Of a DNA stretch of 64,000 nucleotides, positions 3,301-57,863 are shown piece after piece. Source of the DNA: Paraspadella gotoi. Taxonomy: Eukaryota > Animalia > Chaetognatha. Made by a program: the position numbers and the translations under genes. The stretch is from positions 2,925,631 through 2,989,630 of the forward strand of contig CM119267.1 in assembly GCA_051294375.1 (NCBI GenBank). Reading direction: 5' to 3'. How positions within the stretch are numbered: the first letter of the stretch is position 1; every line of letters begins with the position of its first letter. Under the pieces are notes generated by a model. It did not search any database. It was given only the letters and a program-made list of their open reading frames with translations, and was not told where the DNA came from.

Positions 3301-3333
<33 letters not shown>

Positions 3334-3342
3334 TTTCTTCTT

Positions 3343-3397
<55 letters not shown>

Positions 3398-3661: not shown

Positions 3662-3740
<79 letters not shown>

Positions 3741-5455: not shown

Positions 5456-13769
<8,314 letters not shown>

Positions 13770-28537: not shown

Positions 28538-31500
28538 TCATTGTTTGGCGTTCTGCACTTCGCCCTGATTGTCGTATTCGTTGTAAGCGACCCAATCGAG
28601 CGCGATGGGCGCGGATATCATCGTGTCGGAGATGTCGAAGGCGTCGGCCAACGCGAGAGACTGGGGTCCGATCTCCGCACAAAGGCGTCGAGAAATTATC
28701 CCGGCCGTTCGGGCAGTTTCAGGCGCCACGCCTCCTTCCACCACAAACCATCTAGAGTCGGGAGGGGAAAAAAGGAGGATGGAGAGAGAATTTGTGGTCT
28801 CGTGACTGGGAAGGATCAACTTCCTTACCCAAGTTCGTTCTCCAAAACGTTGATTAGATACAAGTGGTACAGTTTGCCGAGAATGGGTTTAAGAGACGCT
28901 TCGGACGAGGCAATGGTGGCGGCGAATCGCTCCGAAATGAGGCGTTCGGCGAAGGCACGAGCCGATGCTTGAACCGCGTCGGATTCTTGCAGCATCCAAA
29001 TGTCGAAAATTCCTTTTCCGCCGGACTGTTGGAAATATAAAGCGACTATGGCAACAGCCGGGTTGCCTGTGATGCCCATTGGGATGGGGCATCTCACTGT
29101 TGGCTTTGGGGGCTTCCGACCCTCAGGGACGCCTCCAGTCACTGGCGCGGTTACCCCAGGACGGTTTCGCTTTGCCAACGCAGAGGGAAGTCGTTAGGAC
29201 TGTGGATGGAACGCAACGCCTGGGATGGTGCGTTCCGCCTCTGAGCCAATGGTATTGGCCGAACGACGGTGGACGGGAGGCGGTGTGAATATAACGCCAC
29301 TCGACGTTATTTTTTTCCCCTTTCTATTAAAAACTATTCATTGAATTGGTTTCGACTTTTACCTCGGCCAGCTTTTTCCCGAGATCGCCGTACAATTTGT
29401 TTTCTCTCATCTGAAAGAGGAAGTGGAGATACTCGACAGATTCGAGGTCCGCCTTTTTAGGAGAATCGAGTTTGGCCGGCTTGAAAACCGCCAACCGCTC
29501 CTTGGCCACTTTTTGCATCAGAACCGAATTGTCTCCTAACGAAATTAACACAAAAAATATAGAGTAGTGTGGACGCAATCCACAGTAGGTTCTTTCATCA
29601 TTAAAATGGAAATTAACCTTCGGCCGTCATGGCGGCGTGAGCCAGACCCAAGAAGGTTCCGAATCTGTTGCAACTGAGATATCCCTGGCCCCCGGTACGT
29701 TCTCGGCATACGGAGGTAGATTCTTCGCAATGCCACGCCGCCATCGGTTTGATTGCGCAGCACATTGTAACGATCTCGGGATGCTCGGACCCATCCTCCG
29801 CCTGCGCTCCATATCTGTGGTGGCGTAAAACGTTAGAAAATATAACATCACAGCGTGACGGCGATAAGGTGAAAATGTTGATGAGTCACTGAGGAATACG
29901 ACTACAGCACTTTTTCCCTCGTTTTACCTGTCCTTGACGTAGTTCAAAGCGAAGTTTATGGCGTAGGTTTTGGCAAGGAGTGGGACAAGGGCTCGTTGCT
30001 GCAGTTGATATCCTAAAATGGGCATGTCGCTTTTGCCGGCTGAACCGACGGTCAAACGAGAAGCGGAGTAACGTAGCGCGATCGTAAGAGCCGCCTAAAC
30101 AAAATATATTGCACATTAAACATATTACACATTACAGTCATTAAATTCACATCGGCACACTTGCGACAGTTATATACCTTGGTGCAGCCGAGGGACATGG
30201 CGGCGATACAGATTCTGCCCGACAGCAACTGATCGGCGACGACGAGAAATCGCTGACGTCCACTGGCAATTGACGTTTCAAACTTACCCTCTTTAGTGAT
30301 GTCGCTGAAGAAAAAACAATTCGCTTACGGAAAAAGAAATTAAGAAAAAAATCCAAGACGAAATTGCCTACACGGCTACCGACCTGTATTTGTTGAGTAG
30401 ATTTTCTCTGGGCACCCTTACGTTGTCGAAAGACAGCTTGGCGTTGTCCACTCCATTAAGTCCCATTCGATGACCCATGTCCTCTATGGTGACCCCGGGA
30501 ATAGTTTTCAGCTTGTCGTCCCGCATGCGAACCATGATTGCATGAATCCCCTGGTTCTCGTTGTTCACCTTAAACGTCACGCAATAAGTACAAAGAATGA
30601 AAGACTAAAAAGGCTCACGATTTAGAATCCCAAGAAACTTGTGAGAATGAAAAATTGATTTGTTCTCGTCTTTCTTTTTTCTTTGAAAAGGGAATAAATT
30701 TACTAATTAGTAAATATTTATAAAAATGCTTTTTATTATTTATTATTTACGACATGAAACTTTCCCTAACAATTCCGAAAGATTTCCCCATCAATTTCAA
30801 CGATATTCAAAGGGCATATTTTGTTGAAAAAAAAAATCAATTTTAACGACTATTAACTTTTGGATGATCTTATTAACTCACGTATAACTGCGCCATGACG
30901 ACGGCGTGCTTGGCGTGAACGGCTCCGTTGGTGATCCAGTATTTCTGGGCCAAGGGATCGGGAGTGTTGACGATGAGCTCGTCAGTGGCGGGGTCGTAAG
31001 TGGCGGTCGTCTCCATCTCGACGGCGTTGTTTCCGTATCCCAATTCGGTCAGAGCGAAGCAACCGATGTCGTCCAAAGTATCGATGCCTGATGGACAACG
31101 AAACCGAGAAAAAGGAAAACAAACTTGAAAGACGAAAACCATGTAGGTACTTGAATAGCTTTATCGCGCTCATTACGTAATTACAATTGAATCACCGCCT
31201 AAAAAGCCCAGTTACAATGGATAAGAATCGTAACTCGACATATTTTTCATAAAATTAGGTCAAATTCGCATCTAATCTCAAGATGGCTAAGCCAACGGCT
31301 CAAGAGCTGTACGGTTGGTTTAACAAACCACCGTACGAAAGCTCACGGGAACCTTATCAAGAAGTAGTGGTCAAATTTAGAGACTTTAGCGGAGATCAGA
31401 AAAAGAAAGGTGGTTTTTCAGATTGTCAAATGTTAGTCAATAGCTGAATTAAAATATTTGCAATAACTTTAGGAAAGAAGGGCGGGGGGATGAGGGTTAC

Positions 31501-33955
31501 GCTGGAACAGCCCATCTTCAAGGCGCCGGGTGAAATGAAAACCAGATCTGCCAATCAAGACGGATATTTCGAGCACGAATTCAAGAGAGTCTTCGAGGTC
31601 GCATCTTTCATAAGGTTTTAATATCGACACGATCATTATATATATCATTGGCGATATTTGAAATCCACAGAAAGAGGGACCAGGGAGGAGAAGCGTGACG
31701 GTCGGATCCGCAAAGGGCGCTTCGAAAGGCGGACGCGTACATCTTCAACAACCCCCGTACATTCCACCGTCTCCCGGTAAAAATAAAAAGAAAATAATTT
31801 TTTTTTCTTCTTTTTTTTTCTTTTTTTTATTGGAAAAGTATTAAGTATATCAATGAAAATCATGAGTGAATATTAGCATTATGGTTCCTAACCTTTACAC
31901 TAGGCCATTTGCCATAAAAAGAAAAGAAAGTTGTAATTTTTTTGACGTTTTTATCGACGCCTTCCTCGTCAGGAAAATTAAACAGCGGAAAAGGGGATTA
32001 TTATGGAACATTTCACGGTCCGTGGTCGCACTGGGACCCGACGGAGCGAAACCGCGGGCCTCTCGTTCACGAGCTCCGCAACTTGACGAACAACCCGGGA
32101 AAAAAGGGGACGGGATACGGTTACATAGATGTCGGCTTTAGCAAATATCCAGAGTATAAGAGCTCGCCCTACCAGCCGGGGGTAAGGATACAACCAAAGG
32201 CTTGACTATTGGCTAACTGACAATTAACGACATTCGTTCTTTTTAATTGTTTTTTCCCCCCAACAGATAGAAATGTCAAACTTGGTCAAAGGTAAAAAGG
32301 GCGTAGCGAGAGTCAAAATCTCCGATTCGCCCTTCTATTCGCAAATCCACGAGCAAGAGCTTTTTGACAACAACGACTGTTATCGGCCGCCGAAAAATCC
32401 CGTTAAAGTAAAGAAAACGAAATTAAATAGAGAGATAACTTTTGCTGAGTAGTAAGTTGCTTTTATCTTATTAATTAGCCGTCCAAAGCTAAGAACAAAA
32501 TGCTCGGCGTCGTTCCCTTTAAACAAGAAAAGATTTTCATTCCTTCGAATCCGGGCAAAAAGCACGGGGGTTGCAAAGCCGGAGGATTTTCAAAATGGCC
32601 GCCTTACGATCCGGCTTCTCCGTACAAGAGAATAGGTTTGAAAACAAAGTCCTTCGCATTTAATTGTTAAGTATCGATCTTCTCAAACCTTATTTACTTC
32701 TTTATCTCAGGTCCGGATTATCTGAAAGAAGTGAGGAACAAAGACAATCAACTCTACGTCCCGATCAACACGACTTGTCCCTATTCTCAAAGATTCACAT
32801 CGCATATCTCGCAAATTGTCAAAAAAGGTCAGAAATGACCCATGATGCAAACGCGCCCACTTTAACTTACGAACGTTTTTTTTTCAGAAATCAACCCGCA
32901 CAGCTACCGGACGCGGGCACCCAATTTGAAGGTCTACTCCTTCGATAGAACTTGGACGCGGGATGAATGGAATTTTAAAAAGGGACTAGTTGAATGCTGA
33001 ATTCATTTTAAGACATTTTGGTGCCGCGTAACAACCATAGATTCTGAACTCTGTTTGCTAAATTCAAGAAATACAAACGTATCAAAAGGGGAAATAACGC
33101 TCTTCATTCCTGAGTAATACAGCTCAAAGTCGAGATCCACCTTTTAAAATCTTCTTGTGATGCCGCTCGGTCCCCAATTTGAGGACGGTTCCGCCGAATA
33201 GGTTGAACTGCACCGTCATCTTGGTGGTCATTGCCGGGTCGATGATCGCCGCCAGTTCGTGGGCCGCAAAAATTCTATGAGGATTGTTCCAAAAATCTAT
33301 CGTGGAAAAAAGAAAAATTGTAGCTTCTGGTTAATATTGCTATCAACACAACCCTTTTTACCAAGAACCGAAATGAATTGGTTGTCGCAAATCCGCTGAA
33401 GTCTGGCCAGGGCGATTTCTCTCTCTTCGGCCAGGTCGATGGCGTACTTGGGCACCATGACAGGGTCAGAGACGAAAGCACGGAACTTCTTGCGCATCTC
33501 CAGGTTATCGTGGTCCAAGATGGCGACCATCGCATCGCGGGAGAAGGAAGGCGAAGCCCAAACTGCGCGAAGCTCTTTCGGCGACATTCGATTGTTCACG
33601 TTGTGGGCTGACCAACATTTCAAGATAAAAGATTTTGAAAATCACCCGGAAATTAATACGGACTCGTGCCATTATCCCAGCGACGCTTAACGAAATATCA
33701 AACAAATTACCGGATGTATTATGTTTAGGCTTCGCCAACTGCGACGACTTCGAACTTGGTGCAACTAAACATCGCGACGAAGACGAGAGCGCTCGGCTGA
33801 GTCCGGCATTTTCCACCAAAATGGCCACCTATTCGTTATTCAATGCAAATGGCAAAGAGATATCGATTTCTGCTCAAATCTTTTAAGAATTGGTGACACT
33901 TTCTGTTCACCTGACTCATTCCGATCCTAATTTTGAAGACGGAAGAGGAAAACAT
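28538..33955 (-). CDS. ACOX: Acyl-CoA oxidase
   Basis: [117 protein letters not shown]. Two in-frame upstream exons (~33955-33911, ~33828-33711) extend the N-terminus. Confidence 0.93.
29034..29301. mobile_element. 240-bp GC-rich, hairpin-rich insert in an ACOX intron, flanked by an imperfect 14-bp direct repeat
   Basis: AATATAAAGCGACT (29034-29047) versus AATATAACGCCACT (29288-29301), 12/14 identical; several internal hairpins. Confidence 0.55.
31283..33000 (+). CDS. CFAP96: Cilia- and flagella-associated protein 96 (C4orf47/DUF4586), nested antisense in ACOX intron 31088-33140
   Basis: About 8 exons: [79 protein letters not shown]. These match human C4orf47 [35 protein letters not shown] and PGKKPGGMKAGTF. 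Confidence 0.9.
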
Positions 33956-34324
33956 GATCCTGACGGCGACGTCTCTTCGTCGTCACTATGTGGGTGAATC
34001 TCTAGCTAAACGCGCGTCGTTATGACTCGGAATGAACATTGGCGAACGAAATAAAAAAAATGTCTCTGAGAAAAAGGAAACTTGTATAAATATAATTTAT
34101 TTCCTATCGAATTATCTATCACATTCAAACAGAAATCTAAACGAGAGACTACAGAAATTACGCGTCGTTAGACTGGAATGAGAGAAATAAAAGGGATTAA
34201 CAAATAACAAAATGAACACTATATTTGACTAGACAGATCTAAGTTAACACCATAAACAATAAGCCGATTATTTTTCGAAGTTTTTATCCAAGTTTTAGCG
34301 AGGCACGTTGTGGAAAAAGAAAGT

Positions 34325-37288
34325 TTACAGCCGCTTAGACGGAGAAAGCATAAGTTGGGATTTTTTTTGTTCGCGTGTGACATCAGTCAGAGACCCATCG
34401 CCATTGTTGTTTCTCTTCCACCGGAGACTTTTGACAAGGAGCGATGACCAAAGTGGTGATACTTTTGGTAGAAGGTCGGGTGAGCACCTCCATGCACATA
34501 TCCGTGGAAGGGGATCGAACCTGCGATATATGATTAAAGATATGATATTTAAGAAAATGAAAACGACGAAAAACAACGTCGTGACAATAACCTGGAAAGT
34601 CTTTTCGTCGTACTCCCAAGAAGTTGAACCCACAGTCGCGTCGGAGGACGTCTCGCAATTTTCCATCATGACGCTAAAAGTAAAACGAAATAATATTTTT
34701 ACAATAATTAACTATGACTATTATAACTATTAACTATGATGGATTAGAAAATGAGGGAAACAAGTCAACGAAGGTGAAGTGACTTGGGAAGAGTAAAACT
34801 GTAAAGGGCAGAAGAAGAGAAAATAGAAGATACGGGGCAAAAAAGAGAATAAGACCGAACGGCGCCCATTTTAGGCTATTTGATCCCCTTTTGTCATTGA
34901 AAAACACGGCTGTTTAGCCACGAACCTGAGGGTGCTAATTTGGGGTCTGAGGCACAACTTGTAACTTCCTTCTGCTGGTCGTAACGTTTTATCGGCCGAC
35001 ATGAGCAGAGCCTGTGTCCCGTGTTGATAATGACACGGATAACTTCCCATGGGTCCACTGAGGAAAAACAAATTTGCATTTTGACTTTTTGAATCCCATC
35101 AATATAAATTCCTTATTTAAATTATATAACTTTGTGTCACTCTCTTAAATTATATAACATATTTCAAAGCATACACTGAATCGCTGGCCAAAGTGTCGAG
35201 GCAATTCTTGGTAGCGATGTTCTCCAAGGCTCCAGCTTTTGCGTTCGTGAGGTCGGGAATCCACAGTTCCGGGTAAATGTTCTCCAAGTACCATTTGAAA
35301 GACTTGCAGTTAAGGCGCTTCCGAAGATTGAGCGCGTCTTCAACCGATCCCAACGGGTTGTCCACCGGAAGTTTGGGAAGGCTAATTTTCACGATTTTCT
35401 TTAAAAAAATAAATCCAAAATTAGCGGCGTTCAAAAATCAACAATAACTAATGGTTACTAACTTATTTTAAATCGGACTCACCTTGTAATCGTCCATCCA
35501 CCCTTCGGCGGCCCTCAACTTGTTTCTATAAATCTCATGGTAAGGCACCGGATAAACCTGACCCCTCCAATATTTCCCGTCGCGAAAGACGTGGCCAACG
35601 CGCGAACAAGGGCCGACGAGCAACTTCCCTCCGCACATCCACGTCTAAAAGGTTTTGTTTTAAAAATAGATTTTCCCCCCGATGTCAAAAGATCATCCCT
35701 TTTTAAACTCCAATCTCGCCTTGAAGCCGATCTCCATTTCCTCGCCACCGTAGAGGCGCATTTCCTTGTCGTATCCGCCCAATTCGTCGTACCACCATCG
35801 TTTGTCGGCGGCGAAGAGTCCGCCGGCCATGATGGGCGATGGGTTCTCGTCATCGTAGTTGAGTCTCCGCGTCTCGGGGTGAGTCTGACCCATGGTCCAC
35901 GAAAATCCCAAGAATGAGAGGTAAGAGTTGACGAAGGTGAGGTCGTCGAAGGTTATGGTGTGGATGAGGGGAACCTTGAATCCAGATTGAGAGAGGAAAC
36001 TGTTTTTAAACTCGGAGAGTTCACTTTTATATAACATAAATAAAATAGACGAAAGACGACTCACGACAACGGTCTTTGTATCGGAGGCGACCATCGCGAC
36101 CAGCGGCTCCAGCCAGTGAGGCGTGCATTCGACGTGAGAATCCAAAAAGACGAGAACTCGACCCTCGGTGATCTCGACGCCGGCCATGCGGGCGCGCATG
36201 AGACCGTGTCGCTCCTGAAGAAGACGCAATGGAATACAAAAAAATTCCCAATTGCTAAAGATTTCCCCGTCATTCCCGCCAATCGAATTCCAAACCTTCA
36301 GTCGAAGAAGTTTGACTTTGGGGAGAAACTTGATGTGGCGATCGAGTTCGTCCTGAAGCCAAGGATGCGAGTTTGGGTCGGAGGCATCGTCGACGAGAAT
36401 GATTTCACGGAGAAGTTGGGGCGGAGAATGGTTGAGGACGCTGAGAAGGAATATCAATGATCGATTCTTGGATTTTCACGGTTGAAGGACAGAGAGAAAA
36501 ATACAGACCAAACAATGAACCACACTGAGGCTCATAAGCACATTATTTTATAGGCGGGAACCTGTGGACGGATCTGAGCAAGGCCGAGAGGAGTTCCTGA
36601 TGAAATATAATGATGACGGAGGCGGGGAGCCACTTTTCCCGCATCCTGTTATCTTCTTCTTCCCAAAAATATCGTCTGCACTGCGGAATGTCCCTTGTGA
36701 AGTCTGGAACGGGGCGGTCGAGAGGCAGAGAGTCTGAGACCCAGGAATTGAAACAATAACCCTTGTGGGCGACCGCCTTGTCTTCGTCCGTCATTGGAGA
36801 CTAAAAAAATATAAGAAAATATAGAGAGATTTTTAAAAGGTGTTTAAAACGATTTCTATTTGTTTAGTAACGGGACATGTTTCAATTTTGAAGCATGTCG
36901 AAACATGTTCCGTGCTTAAAAATTTAAAAATTTTGCTGATCTAACTAGAAAAAAAAGGAAAGAAAGGAAAAATCATAATAAGAGCATATTAAAAAGGCGT
37001 ACATATGATCTTTAGTAAAAAACGTCTTGCCTTCAGCGGTTTCGGTTTCCAAGAGGGTTTTCCCGAGGAATTGACGCCGACCCGCCCATGGAGATGCGTC
37101 CAATCTCTCCAGACGTTCGTGAATTCGTCCTTGAGGGAAACGGTGTCTTTGCGTCGCCCGACGCCAGAGAAAAGAACTAAGACGAAAAAGAGGAGGCCGA
37201 CGACGACGACGACCGAGAGAGTGGCCAGTCTCGTCAAGTAGAGTCGCCGTTTCAACAGATGAAGGTATCGGAAAAAAGTCATGGTCAT
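34325..37288 (-). CDS. GALNT: Polypeptide N-acetylgalactosaminyltransferase (GT27) with C-terminal ricin-type lectin
   Basis: Type II TM anchor; [55 protein letters not shown] (DxH), [40 protein letters not shown]; lectin CLDT, YPCH..GTQ, QxW-like motifs. Confidence 0.93.
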
Positions 37289-37886
37289 GACTCCAGTTTT
37301 GTCATAAGTGATTGGTGAGAGATCCACGAATGTGTTTCGCTTTTTCAAACGAAGAGCGAAGGATTTTAATCCATTTTCATTAAACACCAGGATTGTGTTT
37401 TATTCAAATAAGTCCTCAAATTAAAATTCATTGCACTGTAGTCGTAATTTTCTCACCTCGGAAGAGAAAAAAAAAAGTCATACACGTAAAGTGTTGAGCA
37501 TTTAAACAAAATGAATTCCATTTTCGAATCACGGGGAAAAAAATTCGGACACAATTATGAAAAAAATAAACTGTTATCGTGCCCTAAATTAGGCACTGCG
37601 ATACGTCTAACTCTAAACCACAAAAAGAAAAGTATCACAGCCGAAAATATTTCATACAGAGTTACTGAACTATATAAAATTTCTCTGATAAGTAATAATA
37701 TGGAAAATTGAAACTTAAGAATCGGTGATTTCATAAAATTCTACATGAGTATTCTACATAATTATTGTGAAAAACTGAAAATACACTCATTTTTGAATTA
37801 GGAATTAAATACGTTAGAAAAAAAATAAAAATAAATGCAAAGTTTTTTGTAATTTGTGGTTCCAAATGGAACCGGGATTCTTCATG

Positions 37887-38026
37887 GTTCTTCCCCACCA
37901 ACAAAGTGAGCATCTGCTCTGCAAACGCGACATCTCCGAGAGAAAAACGAAGAGGAAACCTCCTCTTCCCCGCCTTCTCTTCCCCTCCCGTACGCTACCT
38001 CAGTACGCCGACACAAGACAATCACT
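37887..38026. repeat. DIRS inverted terminal repeat (3' ITR in element orientation)
   Basis: Reverse complement of 40156-40297 apart from a small indel near the inner end. Confidence 0.95.
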
Positions 38027-38079
38027 CGTAGCCAAGCAAACCAAGAGGGGGGAATCCCGCGAAGACTTCCGGTGAAGCG

Positions 38080-39750
38080 CTACGCCCACTTGACCGGACG
38101 TCGTAGAAGGGGGGGATGAGAAACCGCAAAAAACCAGTCCATGAACGAAAACCGGGTCTGGAGAAACTGACGGCCGGACGAGGCAACGGCCGAAAGAGCT
38201 GTCGGGCGATCAGTCGGCGTCCTTAGACGTCCCTGGAGCCCCGCCCCTACGCTTGGGAGGCGGCGAAGACTTGCGAGGCGGTAGGGACGGCGAGCGGGAC
38301 TACGCGGACTGCCACGCCCACGCTTGCGGCTAGCAGAACAGGCGCAATTGTGTGGCGCCCCGGAGCGGAGAAGCGAAGAATGGAATGCTAGAGTGACGTC
38401 TGTGGAGCGGTCTCCGAAAAAGAACGACGTGGAGGGCGGAGAACTGGACAGAACTGTCTTGAGATCCGAAGGGGCAGCGTCGACAACTAAGCGCCGAGAC
38501 TCGGAGAGGGCCGAACCAAAAATCGCCGCCAAACCCGACGAGGCGTCTCCAAGGGGCTTGGCAAGATCGTCAAGGTGGCCTGCGTCCACTGCACCGGGCC
38601 CCTCCGAGCGAAGGGCCTCAACCATGAGGCGGAGAGCGTCAGCGACAGAAAGGACAGCATGAGCGGACGCTCCGGCGTCCCTCATGATGCGCTCAAAAGC
38701 CTTGAAAGCGCGCGTCTCTTGGAGTCCTTCCGAACGGCGTCGAACTGAGCGGCAAGGCAACTCTCTTGAGCAGGAGGACGAAAATCCGCCGGCAAAGAGA
38801 CATCCGACCAGCGCCGGAAACACGTATTGGCGGAAAGCACGTCCCACGACGGTAAAAGAACGTCGTCCTGGCCAACTCTGCGCAAATCCCTCCACTGCTG
38901 TAGGACCCATTCCGAAGGCTGTACAGAAGCACGACGAGACAAGAAGTTGTCAAACCCCGCAGCAGACTCTTCAGAGGAGGAACCCTCCTCTGATCCGGAA
39001 ACGGAGGCGTCGTCGTCGACTTGCGCAGATGGGGCTCGACGAGGAAGGCGTGATGCAGTCACCCACTCGGAGCGTGAAGGCCGATCCGCCGCCGAAGAGG
39101 CCGCCAAAGAACGCGAAGACTCCAAGTCGCTGGCGTACAAACGAAGAACGACGAAGAACGGCGAACAGAGGCGTCCAAGAACCATGAAGAAAACGTACAT
39201 GGAAAAAAAGAGAAATCATTAAAAAATGACAGTTCAAAAAAAGAACCCCAAAAAACACCCACCAAACAAGACAAGCGAGCCTGAGCCGCCCTCCACCACC
39301 GGTGGTGCCAGGGGTGGACGGTGGGTGGTTGTTGGTGGGAAGAACCATGAAGAATCCCGGTTCCATTTGGAACCACAAATTCTATCATGTAGTTCTTCCC
39401 CACCAACAAAGTGAGCCCGTAAAAAGACCAGGCGAAGGCCCGACAAAAAACAAACAAACAAAGACGAGTTAGGTGGGGCACAGGAGGAAAACCCCTCTGT
39501 ACGCCGAATGTACGCCAAAAAAAGGCGAAAAACAAAAACGAAAAGAAAGAAGAACTCACCGCCGAAGACTCTCCAACTCGGAACGAGACGAGCGGCGAAA
39601 CTCCTTAAATTCGCGACGAACGCTAGAAAGAGCGTTGCTAATTTGGAGAAGAACTGCCTCCATCTGAAGGGGCATGACTTCGGCCTGACCAGAAAAGCCC
39701 GGAATGGCTGATGGTGGAGGCGGCGGCGAAGGCGGCGGCGGAAGAGACAT
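38080..39750 (-). CDS. Spliced gag-like ORF of the DIRS element (one frameshift near 38710)
   Basis: Exon 39750-39560 (MSLPPPP..coiled coil..ESLR) joins through CG|GTGAGT...polyY..CAG|C in frame to 39129 (DLESSRS..). After a -1 shift it continues AFKAFERIMRD..LAKPLGDASSGLAAIFGSALSESRRLVV..PPSTSFFFGD into a basic tail. This resembles the DIRS ORF1 layout (helical region, RR, P..LFG, basic tail). Confidence 0.6.
39329..39416. repeat. Internal complementary region (ICR) / circle-junction copy
   Basis: ..GAAGAACCATGAAGAATCCCGGTTCCATTTGGAACCACA-AATT-CTATCATGTAGTTCTTCCCCACCAACAAAGTGAGC equals revcomp(left end) + revcomp(right end). Confidence 0.93.
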
Positions 39751-40155
39751 GAGGGTAGTCGAGTTGAAAAACACGCGCCTCAGTCCAAAAAACGAAGAGC
39801 ACTGGACAAACAAGGAAGCCGAAAACAAAGTTCTTCCCCCCTGCAGCCGTACTAAGCGCCGTGGGCAAACGAGAGGGCCGAGTCGCAGCTCTTCCTTCCG
39901 CAGCCGCGCAGGGTGCGTCGAGGGCAAGCGAAAGGGCCGAGTCAAGGCTCTTCCCTCCGAAGCCACGCACAACGAAGACGAAAAAGATGGCGGCCGTGAA
40001 GAGAGAACTTCAAAAAGCCACGTGTTGAAGAATATCTGTATTCTGAACTCCAAAAAAAGAGAAACGAAAAATATGCAAAATTATTCAACAAAAATAATCA
40101 AAAAATATTTTCGTAAAAAAGCCGGGAGACTGAGCGCAAAGGCGCGAACAGAAGA

Positions 40156-40297
40156 AGTGATTCTGTCTTGTGTCGGCGTACTGAGGTAGCGTACGGGAGG
40201 GGAAGAGAAGGCGGGGAAGAGGAGGTTTCCTCTTCGTTTTTCTCTCGGAGATGTCGCGTTTGCAGAGCAGATGCTCACTTTGTTGGTGGGGAAGAAC
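40156..40297. repeat. DIRS inverted terminal repeat (5' ITR in element orientation)
   Basis: Reverse complement of 37887-38026. Confidence 0.95.
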
Positions 40298-40320
40298 TAC
40301 ATGATAGAATTCAAAGTCTC

Positions 40321-43300
40321 TTACGGTGACTTCATTCGGATGTTCACCGTGTCGTCCTGATCTTCGCCGTTAAAAATCTCCAGGCTGATCACGTGAGGGT
40401 TGGCGGCAAATTTGGAGTGAACCTTCTTGGGGGTTTCGAGGGGAGCCGGATGTCGACGCGCGCGGACCAAGCTTTGGCCGATCAAGGCCGACAGAGTCTC
40501 CTTACCACGGTTCCGAGAACAATCTGAGTCGAATATAAATAATTGTAAGATCAAAGGATCAATATTATTGAAAAGGGAGAAGAAGGCGGTGACTACCATG
40601 CATTCCGTGGAGCTGAAAGGGCAGAGCCAAAGGTGGCGGAGCGTCGACGAGCGGGGGTTCAGCGGCGGAAGGAAAATGAGAGACCTCAGAGACGGAGAGG
40701 CGACGAGTGAAACCAAAATCCACAAAGAAAACCTCAAATCTAAATCAAATGACATTTTTTTCAATAATATTTTATTTTATTTTAATACACAAACAAGTTT
40801 CGATAAAACGTACAAATTGGGACGATTTTCTTCGTCCGAGATGGTATCGAAAATATATCCTCGCAGCCATTGTTTGCCTTCGAATTTCGCCATGCATTTG
40901 CCATTGAGAGGAATAGGCTTGAGCGACAGTTCAAAGAATCTGCGAAGAAATAAATAACTAGATATTTACATATATTTTGCTTAAAGGAATAATCAATAAT
41001 CATATTGCCATATATACCGAGCTGCATTTTCCAAGACAGAATGGATTCTTCTCAATTTTCTGAGCGAATCTCCATCTAGAAGTTGTCCCCAGAATCTCCG
41101 ACCGTCTTCGACAGCAAAAACTACAACGTCAACAAGATCGGGAAGATTCTGACGAGTAAAGTCGGAAATAAGAAAAAAAAAATATACATTAATTATTTTT
41201 GTACGCGCAAAGAGAGACAGAGACGTTTCGTACTTTGTAGCGATCGCGACCGAAAGCGGAGGTTATTTCGTCGAGGAAAACTTGGGACATCGTCAAAGGA
41301 AGATTCATCGCTGATTCACGCGTCGAACTTAAATTAACTGAACTGATTTCGCGACGAACTGGGACGGGAGAAACGGAGAGAGCCATCTGAAATTAAATGC
41401 ACAAACGTTTAAGACTATAAATGATCTATCCTGGTAAATTACCTGGGGAAATAGTATCACAAATAAAAATGTTTTTAACCTGGAAAACCTCATCTTCTAA
41501 TTGATCCTGCTGCGGCGTAGACATCGATAGGGACAACATAGCAGAATCGATGGAATCTTCGGTGTCGGAAGTCATTGGAAGACGCGAGACTTGAGGGCGA
41601 TTTTCTCCGGTTGGAGAGACGGATATTCCAGAGGACGAGGCCGTCACAGAAGCGTCCGTCGATCGCTCGATCGTATCGAGGCCGGCGCCGGATTGAGATA
41701 CATAAGAGGTTTCCATTTTAGAATCTAGAGCGGGCGAATTCCCTCTCAGCCTCTCAAACTCTTCCATCGCCTCTTTCTCCGAAGGCCCCCTCCACGATCG
41801 CACCATTTTAATTAAATATCCATCGTGTATCGTCGTGAGGAGCCCCAATTCACAGGATTGACTACCGGGAGGCATCGAAAGGACCGTCAAGTGAAAAGCC
41901 GTCCCGTCTTTGTCGGCCGCTTGGACGAGATGACGAACAGCGAGGTCGTTGCGTTCGATTCCTCCGAGTTGAAGGATGGTGACGAGGGATTCGTGTTCGA
42001 GACCCGAGGCGAGACCTTCGACGCGGAAGACCGACCAAATCATTTCTTTGTTCGTCTTTTCGACGCGAAAAATCGATTCTTTATTCAGAGAGAAAAGTTT
42101 GGGATTCGGGATTCGATCGATCCGGTCGCCGACGTGAACGAAGACTCCGGACATACGGACGACCAGTGGGGGAATGTTTCCGCGGCAAACGCCCCAGAGA
42201 CGTTCGAGGAAGGCGTCGACGGAACCGGGGACGGCGACGCGGACGTAAGCGAAGATTTTCTCGCGGCGATTGTCCACGGAATTGATGTAATCAACTCGCC
42301 GCAGGAGAGCGGATACTCTGGGTGACTCGAGGACGTAGTCCAGAGCGCGACGAACGGCGTCGAAGAGGATTTCTGAAATCTTTGCATCGGAGACGAGAGA
42401 GTCGATGAGGCGCGGGAGAATCTCGAGGAAGTGAATCTCGATGACGGTGATCGAAGAACGAGGACGGGGAGAAGAGTTGACGCCGATTTGTGTCTCTGAA
42501 TCGAAAGACGTTTCCCACTTGGTATCTAAATCTCGGCGGCTTTTATTAAAATCTTTCGGAGGTTTAGCGTCGTCAACGTTGAAAAGGTGGGTCTTTAGAG
42601 GTGGCTTTTCGTAGGGGGGGTAATCTGGAGGAGCTACTTCGGATGCTGCGCCTCTTGAGACGGTTCTCCCCCTCGTGATCCTGGATTGACGTGAACGATC
42701 GTGACGAAAATACCAGCCGAGTTCTCTCACATTTTTTAATTCGTGAACTTCGCGAATCACACGCTGAGCGGCAGGGCGATCGTCAAATCTTATGTAACAT
42801 AACTTGTCTATGATAGTCACTTCGCGCAGGTTGTATGGAGTAAGAAGGTCGCGAATTGCGTCCCTGCATCAAAAATAGAGACCTTAAAGAGTGATGTCAA
42901 AGTGCGTTAATTTTTTCGCGTTCTGATTTTCCGATTTTATTTACCTTGTACTGAAGGACGAATTTTCGCTCGTATTGTAACTGAGTGAGAAGAGCTTGAG
43001 AGGATCAGCTTGTACGTGAGAATCAGCGAGTTTCACATTTTGTATCAAACGTTTGTCGGGTTGCGCAGGACGCCGGTCCTTTAAAAATACGTAGAGGTCT
43101 TCTTTGATTCCCACCCTCGTAAGAACGCTGAGCTTTTCGATGCAGACGTCATCCATAGTCTCGAGACACTCGAGCGCGGATCCGTAGCCGAGATCGTCCC
43201 ACGGAAAAGGCTCCTGCGTGACTCTTTGGAAGACGCGGTCGAAAGCATCTACGGAGACGCGGCCCTCGTCGTTGGAACTGATCACCGCTTTGACGAGAAT

Positions 43301-43339
43301 GACCAACTCGTCGCGAGGCTTCTGTGGCACGCGTTCCAT
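40321..43339 (-). CDS. LOTUS (OST-HTH) + RRM-like + extended Tudor domain protein (TDRD5/7/10-like)
   Basis: N-terminal LOTUS signature LVKAVISS..G..FDRVF..EPFPWDDLGYGSALECLETMDDV. RRM-like segments LCYIRFDD..AAQRVI, KIFAYVRV and VFRVEGL. Small 3' exons give VVVFAVEDGRRFWGQL, GKCMAKFEGKQWLRGYI, VFFVDFG and PPPLALPFQLHG (extended Tudor). Stop at 40321-40323. Confidence 0.82.
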
Positions 43340-44080
43340 TCCAAGTTTTAACTGAATCTAATTAGAAGAGGGATCAAAGCAGTGATAAACGAAAAGCCGC
43401 AACTGTTGCAAGCGAATCTTTCAATTTTCTACTTCTGACTTTAATTTAAGAAAGCGACGAGCTTTGTGAAAAGTAAATACGTAGTGGTGGCACTTCGAGA
43501 TTTACATTGGAAAGAAATTTAATCATAGTTTTACTATATGAAAGAAAATTATTTTACCTATGATTACAGCTGGCTTTATAGACCTTTTAAGTCATGATGA
43601 TGATTTTTTAAAAGTCTTTTTTACTATTAATTAATTTAGAAACAGAAGTTTGATAATCGAAAAAAGCGGAAAATTAAGACGGGAGTTTGAAAGTCAGGCG
43701 TTGGTTTATAATCCTGATTACCACAAGACAGTCTTGAGAAGAGTAAGATCCTATCTGACAATATCAAATAACATCTGTGAGATGGTGCGCATTATCCGTA
43801 TTTTTAACAATTTTCACCAAAAAACTATGGCTCAATTGATGATGGTGATAATAGACGCAAATTAAAACTACAGTTGATTTATATTTTCAATAATTATTAG
43901 GAATTCTGGTTCACCTACGATAATCAGAAACAATAGTTAATCTTTAAAACATTAAATCCACTTCACTAACAAATAAACTTGCGGAAAAGCTCGAACGAGT
44001 TACTTGTCTCAGGCCAGACGACGAGGGACATAATACTATTAGTTTGGTTCCGCCTCGTTCACTCGACTCCAACTGGAGCG

Positions 44081-44728
44081 TCAACGCAGGGGCCTTCCCA
44101 TGTACACCCCGGGCGTCGGCGTGTGGGGCCGCTTGGTGATGGAGTAGTCGACCCTGATCCTTCTGCCGTCGATCTCCATTCCGGAGCATCGATCCCTGGC
44201 CTCCTTTGCGTCATCGGTGTGCTCGAAGTAGACGAAGGCGAAACCGCGACTCCGTCCCGTCGCGCGATCGTAGACGATGCTGACGTCGGAGAGAGGTCCG
44301 TACCGGCCGAAGACCTCCTCCAGGTCCTGCTCACGCGAATCGTGGGAAAGATTAAACACGCCCAAGCAGGAGGACTCTGGCGGGTCGTCGCGGTCGCCCT
44401 CGTGCCGCTTTCTGTCCGACATCGGCGAACGAGAGCGGCGTCGGCGGGAATAATCGCCGCGGCCGCCGTACCGGCTGCGGCGCGACAAGGAGCGGGAGCG
44501 CGATCGAGATCTTGAGCGGCGGCGCCGTCGGTCGCGAGAGCGGCTGCGGGACCGGTGGTGTCGGCGGTATCGGCCCCGGCTGCGGCTCCTGCTGCGATCG
44601 CGGCTTCTATCACGTGAGCGACTGCGGCTTCTCTCTCGGGACGCCGATCTGTGAGAGCGGTTCTTGGAGACGTCGGAATCGGCGTCGGAAAGCGCCGGTG
44701 ACGCTCCGCTTGACTCCCGATCGGACAT
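44081..44728 (-). CDS. tra2: Transformer-2 homologue (RS1 + RRM + linker), single coding exon
   Basis: RS repeats, then [54 protein letters not shown]. Confidence 0.95.
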
Positions 44729-45428
44729 TTCGACTTTTGGACAGAAAGGGGAGAAAAAAAATATTAAAAAATTAATTTTAATAAGTAAGCTTAATGAAAG
44801 ATGTTTAGACCCCGAGTTCAGATATTTAAATAGAGATGCAAGGTCGTATTTTTTTTTTATTTTTTTTTTACCCATATAAATCGATATCTTGTTTTCTTCT
44901 ACCCATTTTTATTTCTTCGTTGCCGAGGAAACTTCAATACTTGAGAAAGACTTGATATATCTTCACAATGACTTCTCATGGAAAATTTCCCGACATGTTT
45001 CTATTTTTTCATGAAGACGAATCTTCATGGAAAAACTGTTGAGCTTCACAGACATTCTATTTCTTGGTAGAGACGTTGCAAAAGCGCGCTTCTTACTTCT
45101 CAGCTTCATACTTCTCACCTTCGAAACTTGAAATGTCAAAAGACGGTTGGATTAGCGAGTATCGAGACAAACGACGATATTAATATTTTTTAATCCGATT
45201 TTTTATGGGGATATGTTTTTAATGATCGACCAATTCTTACCTGATAATTTACTTCTTTTCAATGTTAATGATATCAGTTTAATACAGTAAGGCAGACTTC
45301 CAATCTAAAAAGAAAGACTAGAAATACATTATAAAAATATCACAGAAGTGTGTAAGAATTTAATATTCTGATCGTACGGAGCAAACTATAAAACCCCCCA
45401 CAAAAATCATAAGAATAAATAATTAAGA

Positions 45429-48400
45429 CTAAAAGAGTTCGTATAGTCTTTCTGTCTCGAGTCTGCCTTTTCTAACGCTCTCCGCAACCCAGTCCGGGTT
45501 GACGATATGAAATTTTTTCGATTTTTCCCTTCTGATGCTCCGGTAAGTCTCGGCTCTGTCAGAGCGAACGCAAACGACGTGGGTGAGGCGCGAGTCATCC
45601 AAATTCTCGACGACTTCGCCGCCGAAACGAATCAGATCGAGGGAGACGACTTCTAAAGAAGAATCGAGGTCCCTCGAGGAGGAATCGCTCAACCTTTCAA
45701 GGAGATCCACGTAAAACACTTTTCCGATAAAAACGTGGAAGGGCGACTGACCAACGAGTTCTTCCTTCCATCCCTCGATCGATCCAACGAATCCCGAGAC
45801 ATCGACTGCATCGAAGATCTCCCGCAGCATTTGCTCGTCGACCGGATTCTCGTAGGAGTCGCCAAATTTGTCGAAGCGGCCGCGGAAGGAGAGGCGCACC
45901 TCTTCGGTGGCGACGAGGCAGTCCAAGGGTGCGAGCGGCAGAAGCTTTCTAGCGGCGATGCAACGTAGCAGCCAATCCCCGCGGACGACGAGATACTTGC
46001 CGGTCCTGGAGAAATTCTTAGTCCGAAGGTCGTCCTTGAAAGAGACGATGCAAAACGTAGTCGGCGTAGGATTCTGGGAGATTGTTCCCCCTAATTCTTT
46101 GACCTTGATTTGTAACTCACGCCGAGAAAACATTTTTCTAGGCTCAGAGTCAGTGTCGGTCGAAACCATTTTCTTTAACGGCGACATCGAAGAGGCCAGA
46201 TCCGGAGGATCGTTCAAAATGACGAACTCGTTTCCTCCAAAGGCTTTCGAGGATTCGACGACTTCGTCCAGATCTGGCGCCTCAAAGTTCGGAGCCAATC
46301 GACGCTTAGCGGGGCTGCGGGAGTTGGCGATGCCGTCAAGCTTTCGCCGTTTCGCCGGAGAAGCCGTTGCGTCGGCAGACATGGTCGTCGATAACCCGCC
46401 CACGGCCGTCAGCTTGCCGGCGTTGCTTCGCAACAACGACTCGAAATCTGCCGTGGTCGAGCAATCGGTGAAGCTTTTGTCTGAACGAAAGTTGACGATT
46501 CGCGGAAAGCGAAGTGTGTGACTGACCTTAAAGGCTTCAGATTCGGTCAGTTCCGCCGCTTTGACCTTGAAAAAGAATTGATCTTAAGGTGAGCGATCGA
46601 AATCGAATCACATAAAATTCTAGATTATAGTAAATAAAAATCCATTAAAACCAGAGGCAAGTCATTCGCCTCTTAATCTAAAGGTCCTGCGCTATAGCCC
46701 GCCTAGTTACGATGGACGGAGCGCTTAACCCGCCAGGAGCATGGGTGCTACACTGCTACAGCCTGATGCGAAGCTCAGGGACTGTTACTATATCAATTAA
46801 TTCATAACTATTATTCTGACTCTTCAAGTTAAAACAAGCAGTAAGTCTAAGTACTTATATAAATAAAAATACAAGCTTGACTGAAAGTATAGTTTTTCAC
46901 CTAAAAAAAACCTTTTAAAATGATCGCACCTCGACGACGACCGACTTTTCGGGCCTGATCCACACGTCCGGCTTCTTCCCTTTGCCTTTCATCGACGTGA
47001 GGACGTTGCTGGGTCTCGAACGCTCATCCGTGTTACGAACCAAGGATTGGCGTAGTTTATTATTGAGCTCCTGAAGCTCGAGAAAGGTGTAGCCGCTGCC
47101 TACGCGGCACACGGTGTGGAACTGGGAAGGGACCGAGTCACTCTCGGCGACTTTGTGGCCCAACGCCAACAAGAAGTGAGTCAAGGTGGAAACTGTTCCC
47201 CGATTACCGGCCCCGAAATAACCGCCGACGATGACCAAATCCAACGTCTCCGTCAGAGAATCAACGTACTCGGGTTTGAGTTTTAACCACCCGCCCTTCC
47301 GGCTGTTCGCCTTAAAAGGTAATCAAGGAGGGGGCGGAGTTAACGCGAATCGAGACGCTCGCAATAAGCGATCGACGCTCACTCGATAAAGCGAGGATGA
47401 CGACTTGACGATGACGCCCTCTTCTCTGGCGTCGATGGCGTCGTTGAAGAAAGAAAGCGCTGTTTGATTACGTCGTCCAGTCAAGCGATGGACGTGCATG
47501 AGTCTACCTTCAGTTGGAACGAAGACGTCGTTCGTCAAAATCTGGAACGAGGATCAGGTTTCTTCAGGTTTTATTAAGTTCTTTTTCAATTAAACAGTCA
47601 TATATATCATCCTCGCGTAATATTCACCGAGATCCTCTCTCGAAGAGGCAATCCCGTCAGGACTCGGCCATTAAGATAAAGAACGTCGAAAACGAAGAAA
47701 CAAGGTTGGGGTCCGTCGACCCCGTCGCCGCTCAGACTTTTCACGTCACAGTTGGCGGCTTTGGAGACTCGTGAAGTCGATGAGGCGTCGAAGCCGATCA
47801 TCTCGCCGTCGAGGATCACCGAGGACAGCCCCGACTTGAACGACGAATGAATGTGGCGTGTTAAAGACCTTTCCAAAAATGAATTTGAATAAAATTAAAA
47901 TAAACGAATCAAATAAAAACAAGCGAAAAGGCAGACTCACCCGGAGACGCTAGTTGCTCCGAACTGAGCGGATAAATCGAAATTGTTGCGCGTAAAATAC
48001 TTGTACTTGTCTCCGTCCCGGTGAAGTTGAATTCGTTCGCCATCGAGTTTAGTTTCGAGGAAGAATTCCTCGTTTTCCATCTTTTTCTCGACTTCGGTGG
48101 GAGATTCGCATTTTTCGGCCAGCATCGGTCTGCAGAGAGTGAGAGAGAGAGATAAGAGAGAGATATATATATATATGATTATATATATAAAACGTTAATC
48201 GTGTGAGCCAAGTAAAAAAATACGCTCTTAGTTTCATCAAATGATTGCCTGAAGGGAGTAAAGATTTCAATCTCTATTTCGCAAAGACGCTTCTTCGGGT
48301 CACTCAGGGTCGACGCCAATTTTCGGAGACTGCTGTTGCTGTTGAAGAAATCGTCAGCGTCGGGATGGAAACAGTTTAGGATGGAACGTTGGCCCATTTT

Positions 48401-49170
48401 TATTTTAAGATCCTGATAAGAAAAAATCTAGTCGTTATTATTCTCCTGACAGTATTTATTTCAGCAAAACTTCTTGTCAAATTAACCTTTAAAATCATTC
48501 TTAATAACCACTTCACGTCACGCGCTGACAATTTTTGTAAAAAGACGTGAAACTCGCGCGAGGCTTCACTCTTCCCCTTAGCGCCCTCTTGCTGAGACTT
48601 GGCGAAGGCGTCCAACTGAACATTCACGTCGGACACTGACATCTCGCTCGAATCACGACAAGCCGCTCTTTTTTTCAAAACGAAAAAGACGGTGGACGCG
48701 AAATCACTTTTCGCCGCCGCAGCGGCCGCCAGAGGCGCCTTGTAGTTGAGAAGTCGAACGGCGTCGTCGCTCGTTTTCGAGATGGAAAGCAAATCGATGA
48801 GGAATTTGGCCAGTTTTTGTTCCTTAAGATTGTAAGGCGGTCTTTCCCTGGGTAGATACGGAAGAAGTATACCAATGAACAAAATTAAAACGCTAAATTA
48901 TCTTTACCTGTCCAGGTGAGGTACCAACAACCTAAGCAAATGAAAGGCGTTGTCCGCCGGGTCGCGGGCTTCGTTCGCCAATCGGCGCCAAAATCCGAAG
49001 AGTTTGTCGAAGGCGACTTGAGAGTTTTCGCGGACGTTGGCTTTACCCGTCGAGGAGGTAAGTCGGTCCACGTGATCCAGGAGATCGCAGACTTTGGAAA
49101 AGGGCAGAGTCTTGGCGGAGACACAGTCAGACGGAGAAGAAGCCGACTCATCGCTCGACAACGTATCCAT
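45429..49170 (-). CDS. LIG4: DNA ligase IV
   Basis: LRLLVPHLDR|ERPPYNLKE, motif I ETKLDGER, ILDGEM, FFVFDVL, EEGVIVK, WLKLKPEY, DLVIVGGYFG, RVGSG, TLRFPR, and two C-terminal BRCT domains. Confidence 0.96.
46651..46796 (+). mobile_element. Diverged, 5'-truncated copy of the tRNA-headed SINE, in a LIG4 intron
   Basis: Aligns with 51130-51274 (GAGGCAAGTCATTCGC, AAAGGTCC, GCGCTTAACCCGCC, TACAGCCTGAT.CGAAG.TCAGGGACTG). Confidence 0.75.
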
Positions 49171-49717
49171 TTCTTTATTGATGGAAGGAAACAATTCGCA
49201 TCATCGACGGATCCTTAAGGAAAATTGAAGAAAGATGAATGAGAATGAAAAGTAGATAATAATTTTAAATTTTGTTGTCGAGATTTTATCAGCTTGAAAA
49301 CTAAACGTCATTTCTAAAAATTCGTCATCGCCAATCGCACATTCGATCTTCTTCGGGCTCGATACGGCGAGTTTCGTCATCACAAACGGAAAACAATGAC
49401 ATAAATGACATCATATAGATATCTCTATATCACTGATCTCTACGAAGGAGCGACGAAACATCGAACCGCAGATCCGTAAAAGATAAAAGGCATGGAGAGA
49501 CAAATTCTTTTATGGAATGATCAGAGGTGGTTTAACATCATGGAGGTGTCCAAAAATTAAATGTTTCGCCACTTTGAAGACTTACCTTGGGACTTAACCA
49601 TCGACTATAATTTCTTCTGCAAAATAAAACAAAATCAACAATTGTATATAAAACGGCTATGCATTTCTTAATGCTAACTATTTTCAACTGTCACAAACAA
49701 TTAACACAGTAGAAAAG

Positions 49718-50362
49718 TCATTCCGGTCTGCCGAAGATCTCGTACATCTTCCGACAAAACGTATGCGTTGGAAATCCAACCACATTATCAAAACTTCCAT
49801 TGACAGTGTCGATGAGCGAGGAACAAGCCGTTCCTTGAATGCCGTAAGCTCCGGCCTTGTCCATCGGCTCTCCGGTGGCAACGTAAGCTTTAATCACGGA
49901 CGATGGCAAATCGCCCATCGTGACTTCCGTGGTTTCGTTAAAGACGGTTTCTACGAAGTCGTCGGCTCCCGACGGATCCTTAACAAGCATGCAGACACCG
50001 GTGTAGACGACATGAGTCCGTCCACTCAGCGTAGATAACATCGAGACCGCGTCTTCGGTCGACTTGGGTTTCTCAAAAATTCTTCCGTCGAGAAAGACGA
50101 CGGTATCGGCGCCGACGACGAGGTCCGGCAGTGAAGTCTGGACCTGGCGCCGCCAAACGTCCTTCGCCTTCCCGCGAGCCATTCGCTCCACGTACGATGA
50201 CGGATCTAGAACTTTCGTTTTGTCCACCGTCTCTTCAAAATCCGAGGAGATGATTTCAAAGTCACGAAGTCCGGAGGAGTGAAGAAGAAGTCGGCGTCGC
50301 GGCGACGAACTCGCGAGGACAATTCGCCGCTGACAAAGTTTCGTCAACAGAGGTTCCAACAT
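49718..50362 (-). CDS. ASMTL: Maf-family dTTP/UTP pyrophosphatase (stand-alone ASMTL N-terminal domain), intronless
   Basis: IVLASSSPRR, GADTVV, FEKP, LSGRTHVVYTGV, YVATGEPMDKAGAYGIQG, NVVGFP. Confidence 0.93.
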   Translation of the reverse strand: MLEPLLTKLCQRRIVLASSSPRRRLLLHSSGLRDFEIISSDFEETVDKTKVLDPSSYVERMARGKAKDVWRRQVQTSLPDLVVGADTVVFLDGRIFEKPKSTEDAVSMLSTLSGRTHVVYTGVCMLVKDPSGADDFVETVFNETTEVTMGDLPSSVIKAYVATGEPMDKAGAYGIQGTACSSLIDTVNGSFDNVVGFPTHTFCRKMYEIFGRPE

Positions 50363-50788
50363 GGCCGACAAAGTCTTTTGACGAATTTACTTATTTCCGT
50401 CTGCGAAAGAAGGCACGAAGAAAAACCGTAAAAAAATCGTAAAAAGTGAATCTGTTACATTCGGTAAACGTGTAAATTATATTTTTGACCAGAGATCAAG
50501 ATTTATTTGGTGAGAGATCGTTGGTGTGCGTGTAAAAGGCAACTTTGCTTTATGAGGATGAATTCGTTGCATTGCGGTAAAATATAATTTAAAAAAAAAT
50601 AGTACAAAAAGTTGCGACATACGTGAAAATGTGAATTGGCACAATTGCACTACCTTGTACAAATTATCTCGTAAAAAGATAAAAGAGTTAACAAAAGGAA
50701 TAAAGTTAGCTTGGAATAATTTGTTTTTCTTTTAAATTTTTATTGCAGCGAGTAAAGTTTTCAGAGAAAAATAACTTTTTTCACTGTT

Positions 50789-53700: not shown

Positions 53701-53934
53701 ACGTGTTGACGACGCCATCACCTGATGAAGTATATTATGATATTTAGTAGAATCAAGTACATCAAATTATTAATTATAAATATATTTTGAAGATTTGGAT
53801 GATGGCGATTCACCTTTTGCCTGTAAATATTCATTGTAGCGTTTGAGGTTCCAATTTGACAAATAGCTGCCGTCTTTTTGGCGTCTACTAAACCTTATAG
53901 GTGAAAGTTGAGATTGCACAGAATAAAAGGCCAT
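50789..53934 (-). CDS. GNAT (GCN5-like) acetyltransferase domain protein with acidic insert and C-terminal coiled coil
   Basis: IIHLTLVAVHRRHRRMGVGHKLI (motif A), then VVHADNGATEFFRKEGF (compare GCN5 TYAD..A..YF.KQGF); about 6 exons. An apparent frameshift near 53603 is corrected in the duplicate copy (RVLKTPGIAEV). Confidence 0.8.
51117..51275 (+). mobile_element. tRNA(Gly-CCC-like)-headed SINE with structured body, in a GNAT intron (redundant copy ~60041-60200)
   Basis: Acceptor stem GCGGCCA/TGGCCGC, A-box-like TGGTGCCGGAGG, loop TTCCCAA with a broken anticodon stem, B-box-like GGTTCTAGCCC; related copy at 46651. Confidence 0.75.
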
Positions 53935-54433
53935 AATGGGTCTAAAGTTAAAGTTTTTTAATGTTGGTGGTCCTCGATCCTAGAAGTGACAATTATACGA
54001 ATTAGCTCAACTTTTAGAAACAACAAATAGAGTACATTCCAATATTGGATAAAAGAATCAACCAGACATAACAAAGGGAGAGATCTATTTTCAAAATTCG
54101 ATGTACTAAAATAAAAACAAACAAAAAATTTCAAGTTATTTAACATATTTTTTTTATTATTTACGTTAACCCCACCAGCGAGCGTCTTGCTATCTCGGAA
54201 ATTAAAGAATTACGTCTCTTCCTAGCTACCGAAAGTTACCACGTCGAAATTGAAATTGAACGCACTGAGATCGAACGACATAGTTCTGACGCGAATTCAA
54301 TTCGCCCGAAATTCTTTACTATGGAAATAAAGATGCACAGAAGGCCGCCATCTTGGTTTCGTCTCTCTTCTTCCACGTTGAGAACCAAAAACTTTTTCGT
54401 GGAAAAACAAATGAACAGAAGTTCTGTCAGAAC

Positions 54434-55530: not shown

Positions 55531-55793
55531 AGAACTCGTAAAATTTTTCCCCAAATCATAGGAATCATACAAAATGACTACACCAATGAGTACCCAGTCG
55601 GTACGTAAGGAAAAAAGAAAAAATTCTGGGAACCTGGTTAGGGGCATACTCTTGGCAGGAGTTTACAAGGCGGATTGCTTTATTGCGTACCATCGTTGCG
55701 TACTCGTGCGTACTCTTTGCGTACTTAATACCGTGTAAAACCATATTTCGTACTGGCGTTAATCATAAAGATCGTAAGCGTCAAGGTTTAAGA

Positions 55794-57838: not shown

Positions 57839-57863
57839 NNNNNNNNNNNNNNNNNNNNNNNNN

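Follow-up and report, generated by a model that had tools for sequence, protein, structure and literature searches.

DIRS1-like retrotransposons, such as DIRS-1 of Dictyostelium, have ITRs with conserved and divergent parts, a right extension, ATT ends and an ICR, the complement of the joined right and left termini, whose two parts overlap at the circle junction (available text of PMC3266345, PMC9210276 and PMC7192593). ATT is the commonest end in the group, and the ICR is described as 3′-terminal in the portion available of PMC3266345. The ICR of DIRS-1 is essential: when it is deleted, cDNA is still made but retrotransposition is blocked, so that it acts after first-strand synthesis, and the RT is active in trans (available part of PMC7192593). 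Retrotransposons should purge introns, and it is a long-standing question how a single RNA manages to act as message as well as template. For some Ngaro elements of fungi, introns have been reported. An ICR inside an intron, an arrangement of which the preliminary description of the present locus knew no account, was not found in our literature searches either, the Goodwin and Poulter papers, the 2015 Poulter and Butler review and Repbase Reports lying outside their scope. The word “intron” has no occurrence in the available text of PMC3266345, PMC9210276, PMC3783388 and PMC6681497, “DIRS” is absent from the available text and three supplements of the chaetognath genome paper PMC12460157, and the accessible portions of PMC9341512, PMC5718144, PMC9940879 and PMC5890265 added nothing on an ICR inside an intron.

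The window, by which we mean the whole 64,000-nucleotide stretch of Paraspadella gotoi DNA that was analyzed, contains on its minus strand (37851..40311) a whole, non-autonomous DIRS1-like element of 2,461 bp with AATT at both ends and no target duplication outside. The left terminus with the left ITR occupies 40156..40311 (conserved part 40164-40297), and the right ITR, with a right extension and a terminal 6-bp hairpin, occupies 37851..38026 (conserved part 37887-38020). The conserved ITRs (134 nt) are 100% identical, their outer parts are divergent and the right end is extended; AATT is common to both termini and to the ICR junction, and no TSD is present. These features, together with the complementarity of the ICR to the termini, the NTT ends and a DIRS-type Gag, are those of the DIRS1-like group. 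What the element lacks are an ICR at the 3′ end beyond the ORFs and the RT, RNase H, methylase and tyrosine recombinase ORFs of autonomous members: gag is its sole gene, and the short 3′ region (38021..38207), which an X7 contig (37999-38783) spans from gag into the right ITR, holds neither pol nor recombinase. The pol of a metagenomic relative (L001, see below) had no match anywhere in the window (best E 0.5), and the element is too short for pol ORFs. Since RT and recombinase are absent, the element is non-autonomous and all its replication steps run in trans. It is thus an element that works like DIRS1, with the terminal and Gag features of that group but not its 3′ ICR or its autonomy.

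A Ngaro- or PAT-like identity was rejected, as the repeats are inverted and split direct repeats, or long direct repeats of any kind, are absent. A decayed start of pol 3′ of gag is at most a trace, the best minus-strand matches (E ~0.6-0.8) being not significant. In the right extension, the terminal hairpin, with a 6-bp stem and a 4-nt loop and five bases ahead of the final TT, may correspond to the 3′ RT-primer hairpin proposed for DIRS-1 or to an RNA 3′-end signal, chance being likely. Matches to the Rfam histone 3′ stem-loop at 37835-37878 (minus strand) and 39354-39398 (plus strand) are sub-threshold (25-27 bits, cut-off 34).

Nine sequencing runs contain about half of the element's words, and the contigs of five of them were compared with the window. 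The contigs of X6 and X7 both skip seven host introns with GT/GC-AG ends, which those of X2 and X3 read through; by this measure X6 and X7 are RNA runs, and X2 and X3 DNA runs; X9 was compared on 39000-39700 only, its RNA or DNA type is unverified, and its gap at 39216-39263 proves nothing. Two of the seven host introns confirmed by RNA contigs (35645-35719 and 36801-37030) have GC-AG ends. The summed depth of DNA contigs across the element is ~285-570-fold that of the single-copy flanks, a step at the element limits that indicates a multi-copy family but is not a copy number. DNA contigs are mostly at least 95% alike to the element (1,727 of 2,152 in X2); decayed deletion copies also exist, and single-copy deletion variants are visible in X2. 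The junctions of the window insertion were found in all four runs X2, X3, X6 and X7, which come from three studies, and no empty insertion site appeared among the 15 of 43 joints listed in the contig comparison of these runs.

The ICR lies on the minus strand at 39329..39416 and forms a long hairpin within an intron that interrupts gag. It comprises 88 nt, with a one-base gap in its alignment to the joined termini: complementarity of 100% extends over 45 nt to the right end and over 39 nt to the left end, with a 3-nt overlap at the junction. The claim that the 430-nt intron holds the whole ICR is thereby borne out. The ICR begins 143 nt past the donor and ends 199 nt ahead of the acceptor, 895 nt (~0.9 kb) from the 5′ end of the element, with the right ITR 1,309 nt further downstream. 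Its core motif had three matches in the window, in the two ITRs and the ICR, against 0.05 expected, so there is no second ICR in the window. At position 39376, the ICR and the right terminus of the window copy carry the same minority base, from which ~95% of the depth differs (~5% carry it), as would be expected if the ends were templated on the intronic ICR. The predicted fold of the intron has a z of −8.2 against shuffled sequences.

Two exons of gag, exon 1 at 39560..39750 (ATG at 39750; 63 codons plus 2 nt, 191 nt) and exon 2 at 38208..39129, both on the minus strand, flank this GT-AG phase-2 intron (39130..39559), whose donor CG|GTGAGT starts at 39559 and whose acceptor CAG ends at 39130. 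The preliminary description had proposed this donor, with the stop of the first frame lying over it, and this acceptor as restoring the frame. The donor is as described, the sole GTRAGT on the minus strand of the element; the stop over it is automatic in any phase-2 GTGAGT donor and is not independent evidence. Five AG dinucleotides occur between 39300 and 39060, of which only the one at 39130 restores the frame, and this acceptor also has the best pyrimidine tract of the five (19/25). In RNA run X7, a contig of depth 152 joins 39129 to 39560, skipping exactly 430 nt with CT..AC ends, and splicing thus occurs at the very bases predicted; the joint is carried by one contig of one run, with a shorter side of 29 nt, under a contig method with a 31-nt bridging rule. 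Further X7 contigs start at the branch points that the two splice sites would create in a k-mer graph, record 23 at 39560 and record 19 at 39101, 30 nt into exon 2 counting the common base. The joint was absent from the contigs of X6, X9 and the DNA run X2 (39000-39700; all five joints examined), and is thus present in one of the three runs other than the DNA control, bearing in mind that contigs show presence rather than absence and give neither strand, level nor conditions. With GT-AG ends, a pyrimidine tract, skipping in RNA (in one contig) and presence in DNA, the intron has the features of a spliceosomal (U2-type) intron.

Intron-retaining contigs were also found, so that both of the RNA forms envisaged earlier are represented: X7 contigs cover 39101-39357 and 39504-39583 (depth 62-117), an X6 contig (39069-39313, depth 590) runs across the acceptor, and an X9 contig (depth 1,308) ends at 39135, six bases into the intron. 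Conservation of the splice sites among copies and absence of intron-less copies had both been put forward as checks, and the contigs agree with both. None of the 30 variant rows places a variant of ≥10% in donor positions +1 to +6 or in the acceptor CAG, and no intron-less form occurred in the contigs of X2, the one DNA run with all joints examined. Intronic variant rows (430 nt) number 24 and exonic rows (271 nt) 6, and the 12 indels listed of 18 are all intronic. A predicted pairing (−40 kcal/mol) between the 5′ part of the intron (39490-39520) and its 3′ splice region (39131-39180) could mask the acceptor. We do not claim such masking, as a majority variant at 39136 weakens the pairing and no compensating change is found among the variants listed.

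Without splicing, the gag reading stops after 64 aa, as translation confirmed for the peptide given in the preliminary description. After splicing, the junction (...LRR-DLE...) is in frame, and 201 codons are free of stops up to the first frame break. Exon 1 encodes a proline-rich start followed by a helix-like stretch, and exon 2 an acidic linker, a DIRS Gag core and a basic tail, with the stop at ~38212-38210. The further claim that spliced RNA yields full-length Gag holds for the joining of the frame but not for the window copy, which has two frame breaks, near 38716 and 38278, and as assembled would not yield full-length Gag. At both sites the X7 contig 37999-38783 differs from the window and lacks the breaks; in X2, X3 and X6, 45-98% of the summed depth likewise departs from the window there. 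Each break is either a mutation private to this copy or an error of assembly, and does not represent the expressed form. The frame breaks, the missing pol and recombinase, and the spliced leader discussed below are points absent from the preliminary description. Among the at least 15 exon variants listed and classed, 8 are synonymous and 7 non-synonymous. Those segregating fall in seven codons (5 synonymous, 2 non-synonymous), and the eight listed sites that are window-private or near-fixed also fall in seven (3 synonymous, 4 non-synonymous). Selection on Gag is weakly supported by these sequence comparisons, since four of the seven window-private or near-fixed codons are non-synonymous and 40 further variant rows lie outside these counts. 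The gag 5′ UTR contains a 55-nt direct repeat (39856-39969), its copies 82% alike and at a 59-nt spacing, which is a candidate packaging or regulatory element.

Pfam gave no match for Gag or its 12 homologues, word-based protein searches with pieces of the window Gag found nothing, and the ESM Atlas offered no usable match for Gag. The 12 homologues were found with a 122-aa piece of exon 2 (E≤1e-3, 35-46% identity); the upstream piece of exon 2 matches the homologue profile (probability 94.6, E 7e-8), and single homologues align over both window frames of exon 2. A metagenome scan for related DNA yielded one locus, L001, from 326 candidate stretches, and none was found in viral contigs or prokaryote genomes. 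L001, located through the alignment of the Gag homologues, is over positions 1-2660 a partial, autonomous-looking DIRS element, in which gag is directly followed by a 552-aa frame with RVT_1 and RNase H/Dam-like features, i.e., the DIRS domain order. It has an acceptor-like AG at 85 (16/20 pyrimidines) and starts 85 nt upstream of this AG. Three Gag homologues (P0037, P0044 and P0052) have an F/L/S-rich start, a read-through like that of the window's own intron end. The gag intron may therefore be a trait of a clade, to judge from these sequences. Two contigs each in X6 and X7 track the 5′ region of the element and the first gag codons as far as 39713 and then diverge for 132-243 nt; these are sister subfamilies, possibly including the autonomous partner.

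The RNA is processed at a second place. At 40042..40043 (minus strand), a pyrimidine tract and a CAG ending at 40043 form a trans-splice acceptor, with the spliced leader joined at 40042. X7 has here a 15-nt loose end that is the same as the one at the 5′ end of a host gene (37456), each following a pyrimidine tract and AG, and the 15 nt match the 3′ end of chaetognath SL2 (Table 3 in the available part of PMC2481426), a match that by itself points to an arrow worm as the most likely host. The first ATG past 40042 is that of gag. Leader addition takes off the whole left ITR and 121 unique bases, and an X6 contig (39734-40119) crosses 40042 without a leader, so that X7 represents the processed and X6 the unprocessed form at this position. 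Leader and cis-splice both occur in X7 on separate contigs, and their linkage in one RNA is presumed. Under the Cappello model, reconstruction of the left end relies first on residual terminal sequence and afterwards on the ICR (available part of PMC7192593); leader-bearing RNA would thus lose the left end too, and leader trans-splicing is likely a second lock alongside removal of the ICR.

Downstream of the element, RNA contigs of X6 (depth 105) and X7 (62.5) run at 37457-37886 from its right end through a 394-nt spacer to the leader acceptor of the host gene, a glycosyltransferase gene that we take to be GalNAc-T-like, and represent either read-through from the element or an operon-like transcript. 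The surrounding region (30800-50400) is a long run of minus-strand genes, possibly operonic, including a 480-aa ORF without Pfam match, a LOTUS-domain ORF, tra2-beta-like and DNA ligase IV genes, and presumably acyl-CoA oxidase-like, GalNAc-T-like and Maf-like ORFs. Elsewhere in the window there are near-tandem duplications of 95-96% identity (48942-55092 versus 57868-64000 and 1237-5089 versus 5126-9080), their second copy interrupted by frame breaks, as well as a tandem array that has diverged (55780-57840), either real duplicates or long-read assembly artefacts.

We consider it probable that this is a gag-only, multi-copy DIRS1-like family with its ICR in a spliced intron, in which spliced RNA yields Gag and likely cannot complete retrotransposition, leaving intron-retaining RNA as the only template. 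Transcription would likely start from the left ITR or result from read-through. On the message route, leader addition at 40043|40042 would drop the left ITR and cis-splicing the ICR, giving a Gag of ~370 aa from unbroken copies. On the genomic route, the unprocessed RNA would encode only the 64-aa peptide and keep the ITR remnant and the ICR; by analogy with DIRS-1, an autonomous partner, itself unseen, would supply RT and recombinase in trans, by which the RNA would be copied, its ends rebuilt on the ICR and the product integrated at ATT. That RNA lacking the ICR cannot replicate, as proposed earlier, follows from the DIRS-1 deletion experiment (available part of PMC7192593), in which loss of the ICR blocks retrotransposition; carried over to this element, it suggests that spliced RNA could not finish the process and that intron-retaining RNA would be the sole possible template for the partner's enzymes. 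Spliced copies would never be fixed, and the intron would be locked in and self-preserving, consistent with the DNA contigs. The splice switch suggested in the preliminary description is in these respects partly supported, and a regulated choice between the two RNAs would be one possible form of it. Read-through from host genes may account for part of the retained RNA: the window copy is in sense orientation among co-directional clustered genes, and its flanks too are represented by RNA contigs.

Several other readings have to be weighed. An origin of the joint by misassembly, or by a genomic deletion in a single individual, is extremely improbable: it does rest on a single contig with a 29-nt side in a run automatically labeled “DNA?”, but it coincides with exactly the GT..AG pair that had been predicted and uses the sole AG that restores the frame, X7 is RNA to judge from its skipped host introns and its leaders, and X2 lacks the joint. 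Gag might also be made from unspliced RNA through the intronic ATGs at 39200 or 39185, one RNA then being both message and template. In the window copy both ATGs share the frame of exon 2, and homologues are called from nearby ATGs; against this, other ATGs lie upstream of them, and in the two intron-retaining RNA contigs (X6 and X7) an insertion of net 8 nt ahead of the acceptor, downstream of both ATGs, shifts them out of frame, so that we regard this route as very unlikely. A family that is immobile or exploited by the host, with Gag kept as a helper or inhibitor in trans of autonomous DIRS elements and the retained RNA mere read-through, would accord with the decayed deletion copies, with window insertion junctions in all four runs from three studies and with a Gag that, coming from non-replicating RNA, gains nothing by cis preference. 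It is an unlikely reading, as the 134-nt ITRs are 100% identical, the ICR matches the termini, and most DNA contigs are ≥95% alike (1,727/2,152 in X2), a likeness that points to recent copying.

The alternative that we take most seriously, without preferring it, is one of neutral stowage: with pol, recombinase and the usual 3′ ICR region gone or rearranged, the ICR would have persisted in the single non-coding slot that left gag intact, and splicing is leaky and unregulated, so that the split between mRNA and template is a by-product confined to this element family. This is a real possibility given that the element is a pol-less derivative, that no relative with a 5′ ICR was seen (L001 begins only 85 nt upstream of its acceptor-like site) and that differences between runs may reflect library type. 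The splice cores are nevertheless invariant, and the F/L/S-rich starts of P0037, P0044 and P0052 suggest an intron older than the derivative; the mechanical consequence is in any case identical either way.

A broader version of the preferred reading, in which a DIRS clade that includes autonomous members carries its ICR in a conserved gag intron, making proteins from spliced and copies from unspliced RNA, is in our judgment doubtful. If true, message and genome would be strictly separated, doubly so here by leader trans-splicing, the efficiency of host splicing alone would set the transposition rate, and the intron would never be lost. For the element itself, an ICR, provably needed by DIRS-1, inside an intron that Gag expression must remove gives the element an inherent reason to keep the intron and divides the fates of its RNA in a clean and testable way. 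As Gag would be made only from non-replicating RNA, cis preference would be impossible, which raises the question of why a pol-less family keeps gag open. The layout also suggests that an ICR need not adjoin the right ITR, a point relevant to annotation that seeks it only at the 3′ end.

Penelope-like elements, though of another class, resemble this one in that introns survive retrotransposition, but there the introns are held to be kept because the template is antisense or unspliced, and no essential intronic element is invoked (available part of PMC3846280). The copia-type BARE1 also has separate RNAs for translation and replication and a spliced Gag-only RNA, but its pools are set by promoter, cap and tail, and its unspliced RNA still encodes the polyprotein (available part of PMC3735527). 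In the element described here, by comparison, the splice removes the cis-element itself and the unspliced RNA encodes no full Gag. In some retroviruses, psi lies within an intron. As proposed for this element, only the intron-retaining RNA of retroviruses serves as genome, but there the unspliced RNA is the Gag message, the reverse of the present case, and selection takes place at packaging rather than at end repair and circularization (available part of PMC5035971). Among chaetognaths, a DIRS-related element of Spadella cephaloptera (2.8-3.9 kb) has inverted repeats of 166 bp and is annotated only as ?-YR-?, with no ICR, gag or intron described in the portion available of PMC2997562. The closest likeness remains with the DIRS1-like elements themselves, with which this one shares an ICR of 88 nt, as in DIRS-1, and a Gag homologous to that preceding the DIRS-type pol of L001. 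It differs in that their ICR is 3′, beside the right ITR (available text of PMC3266345, PMC9210276 and PMC7192593), whereas here it lies inside a gag intron, in its want of RT, RNase H, methylase and recombinase, and in a Gag that needs splicing and an RNA that receives its leader by trans-splicing.
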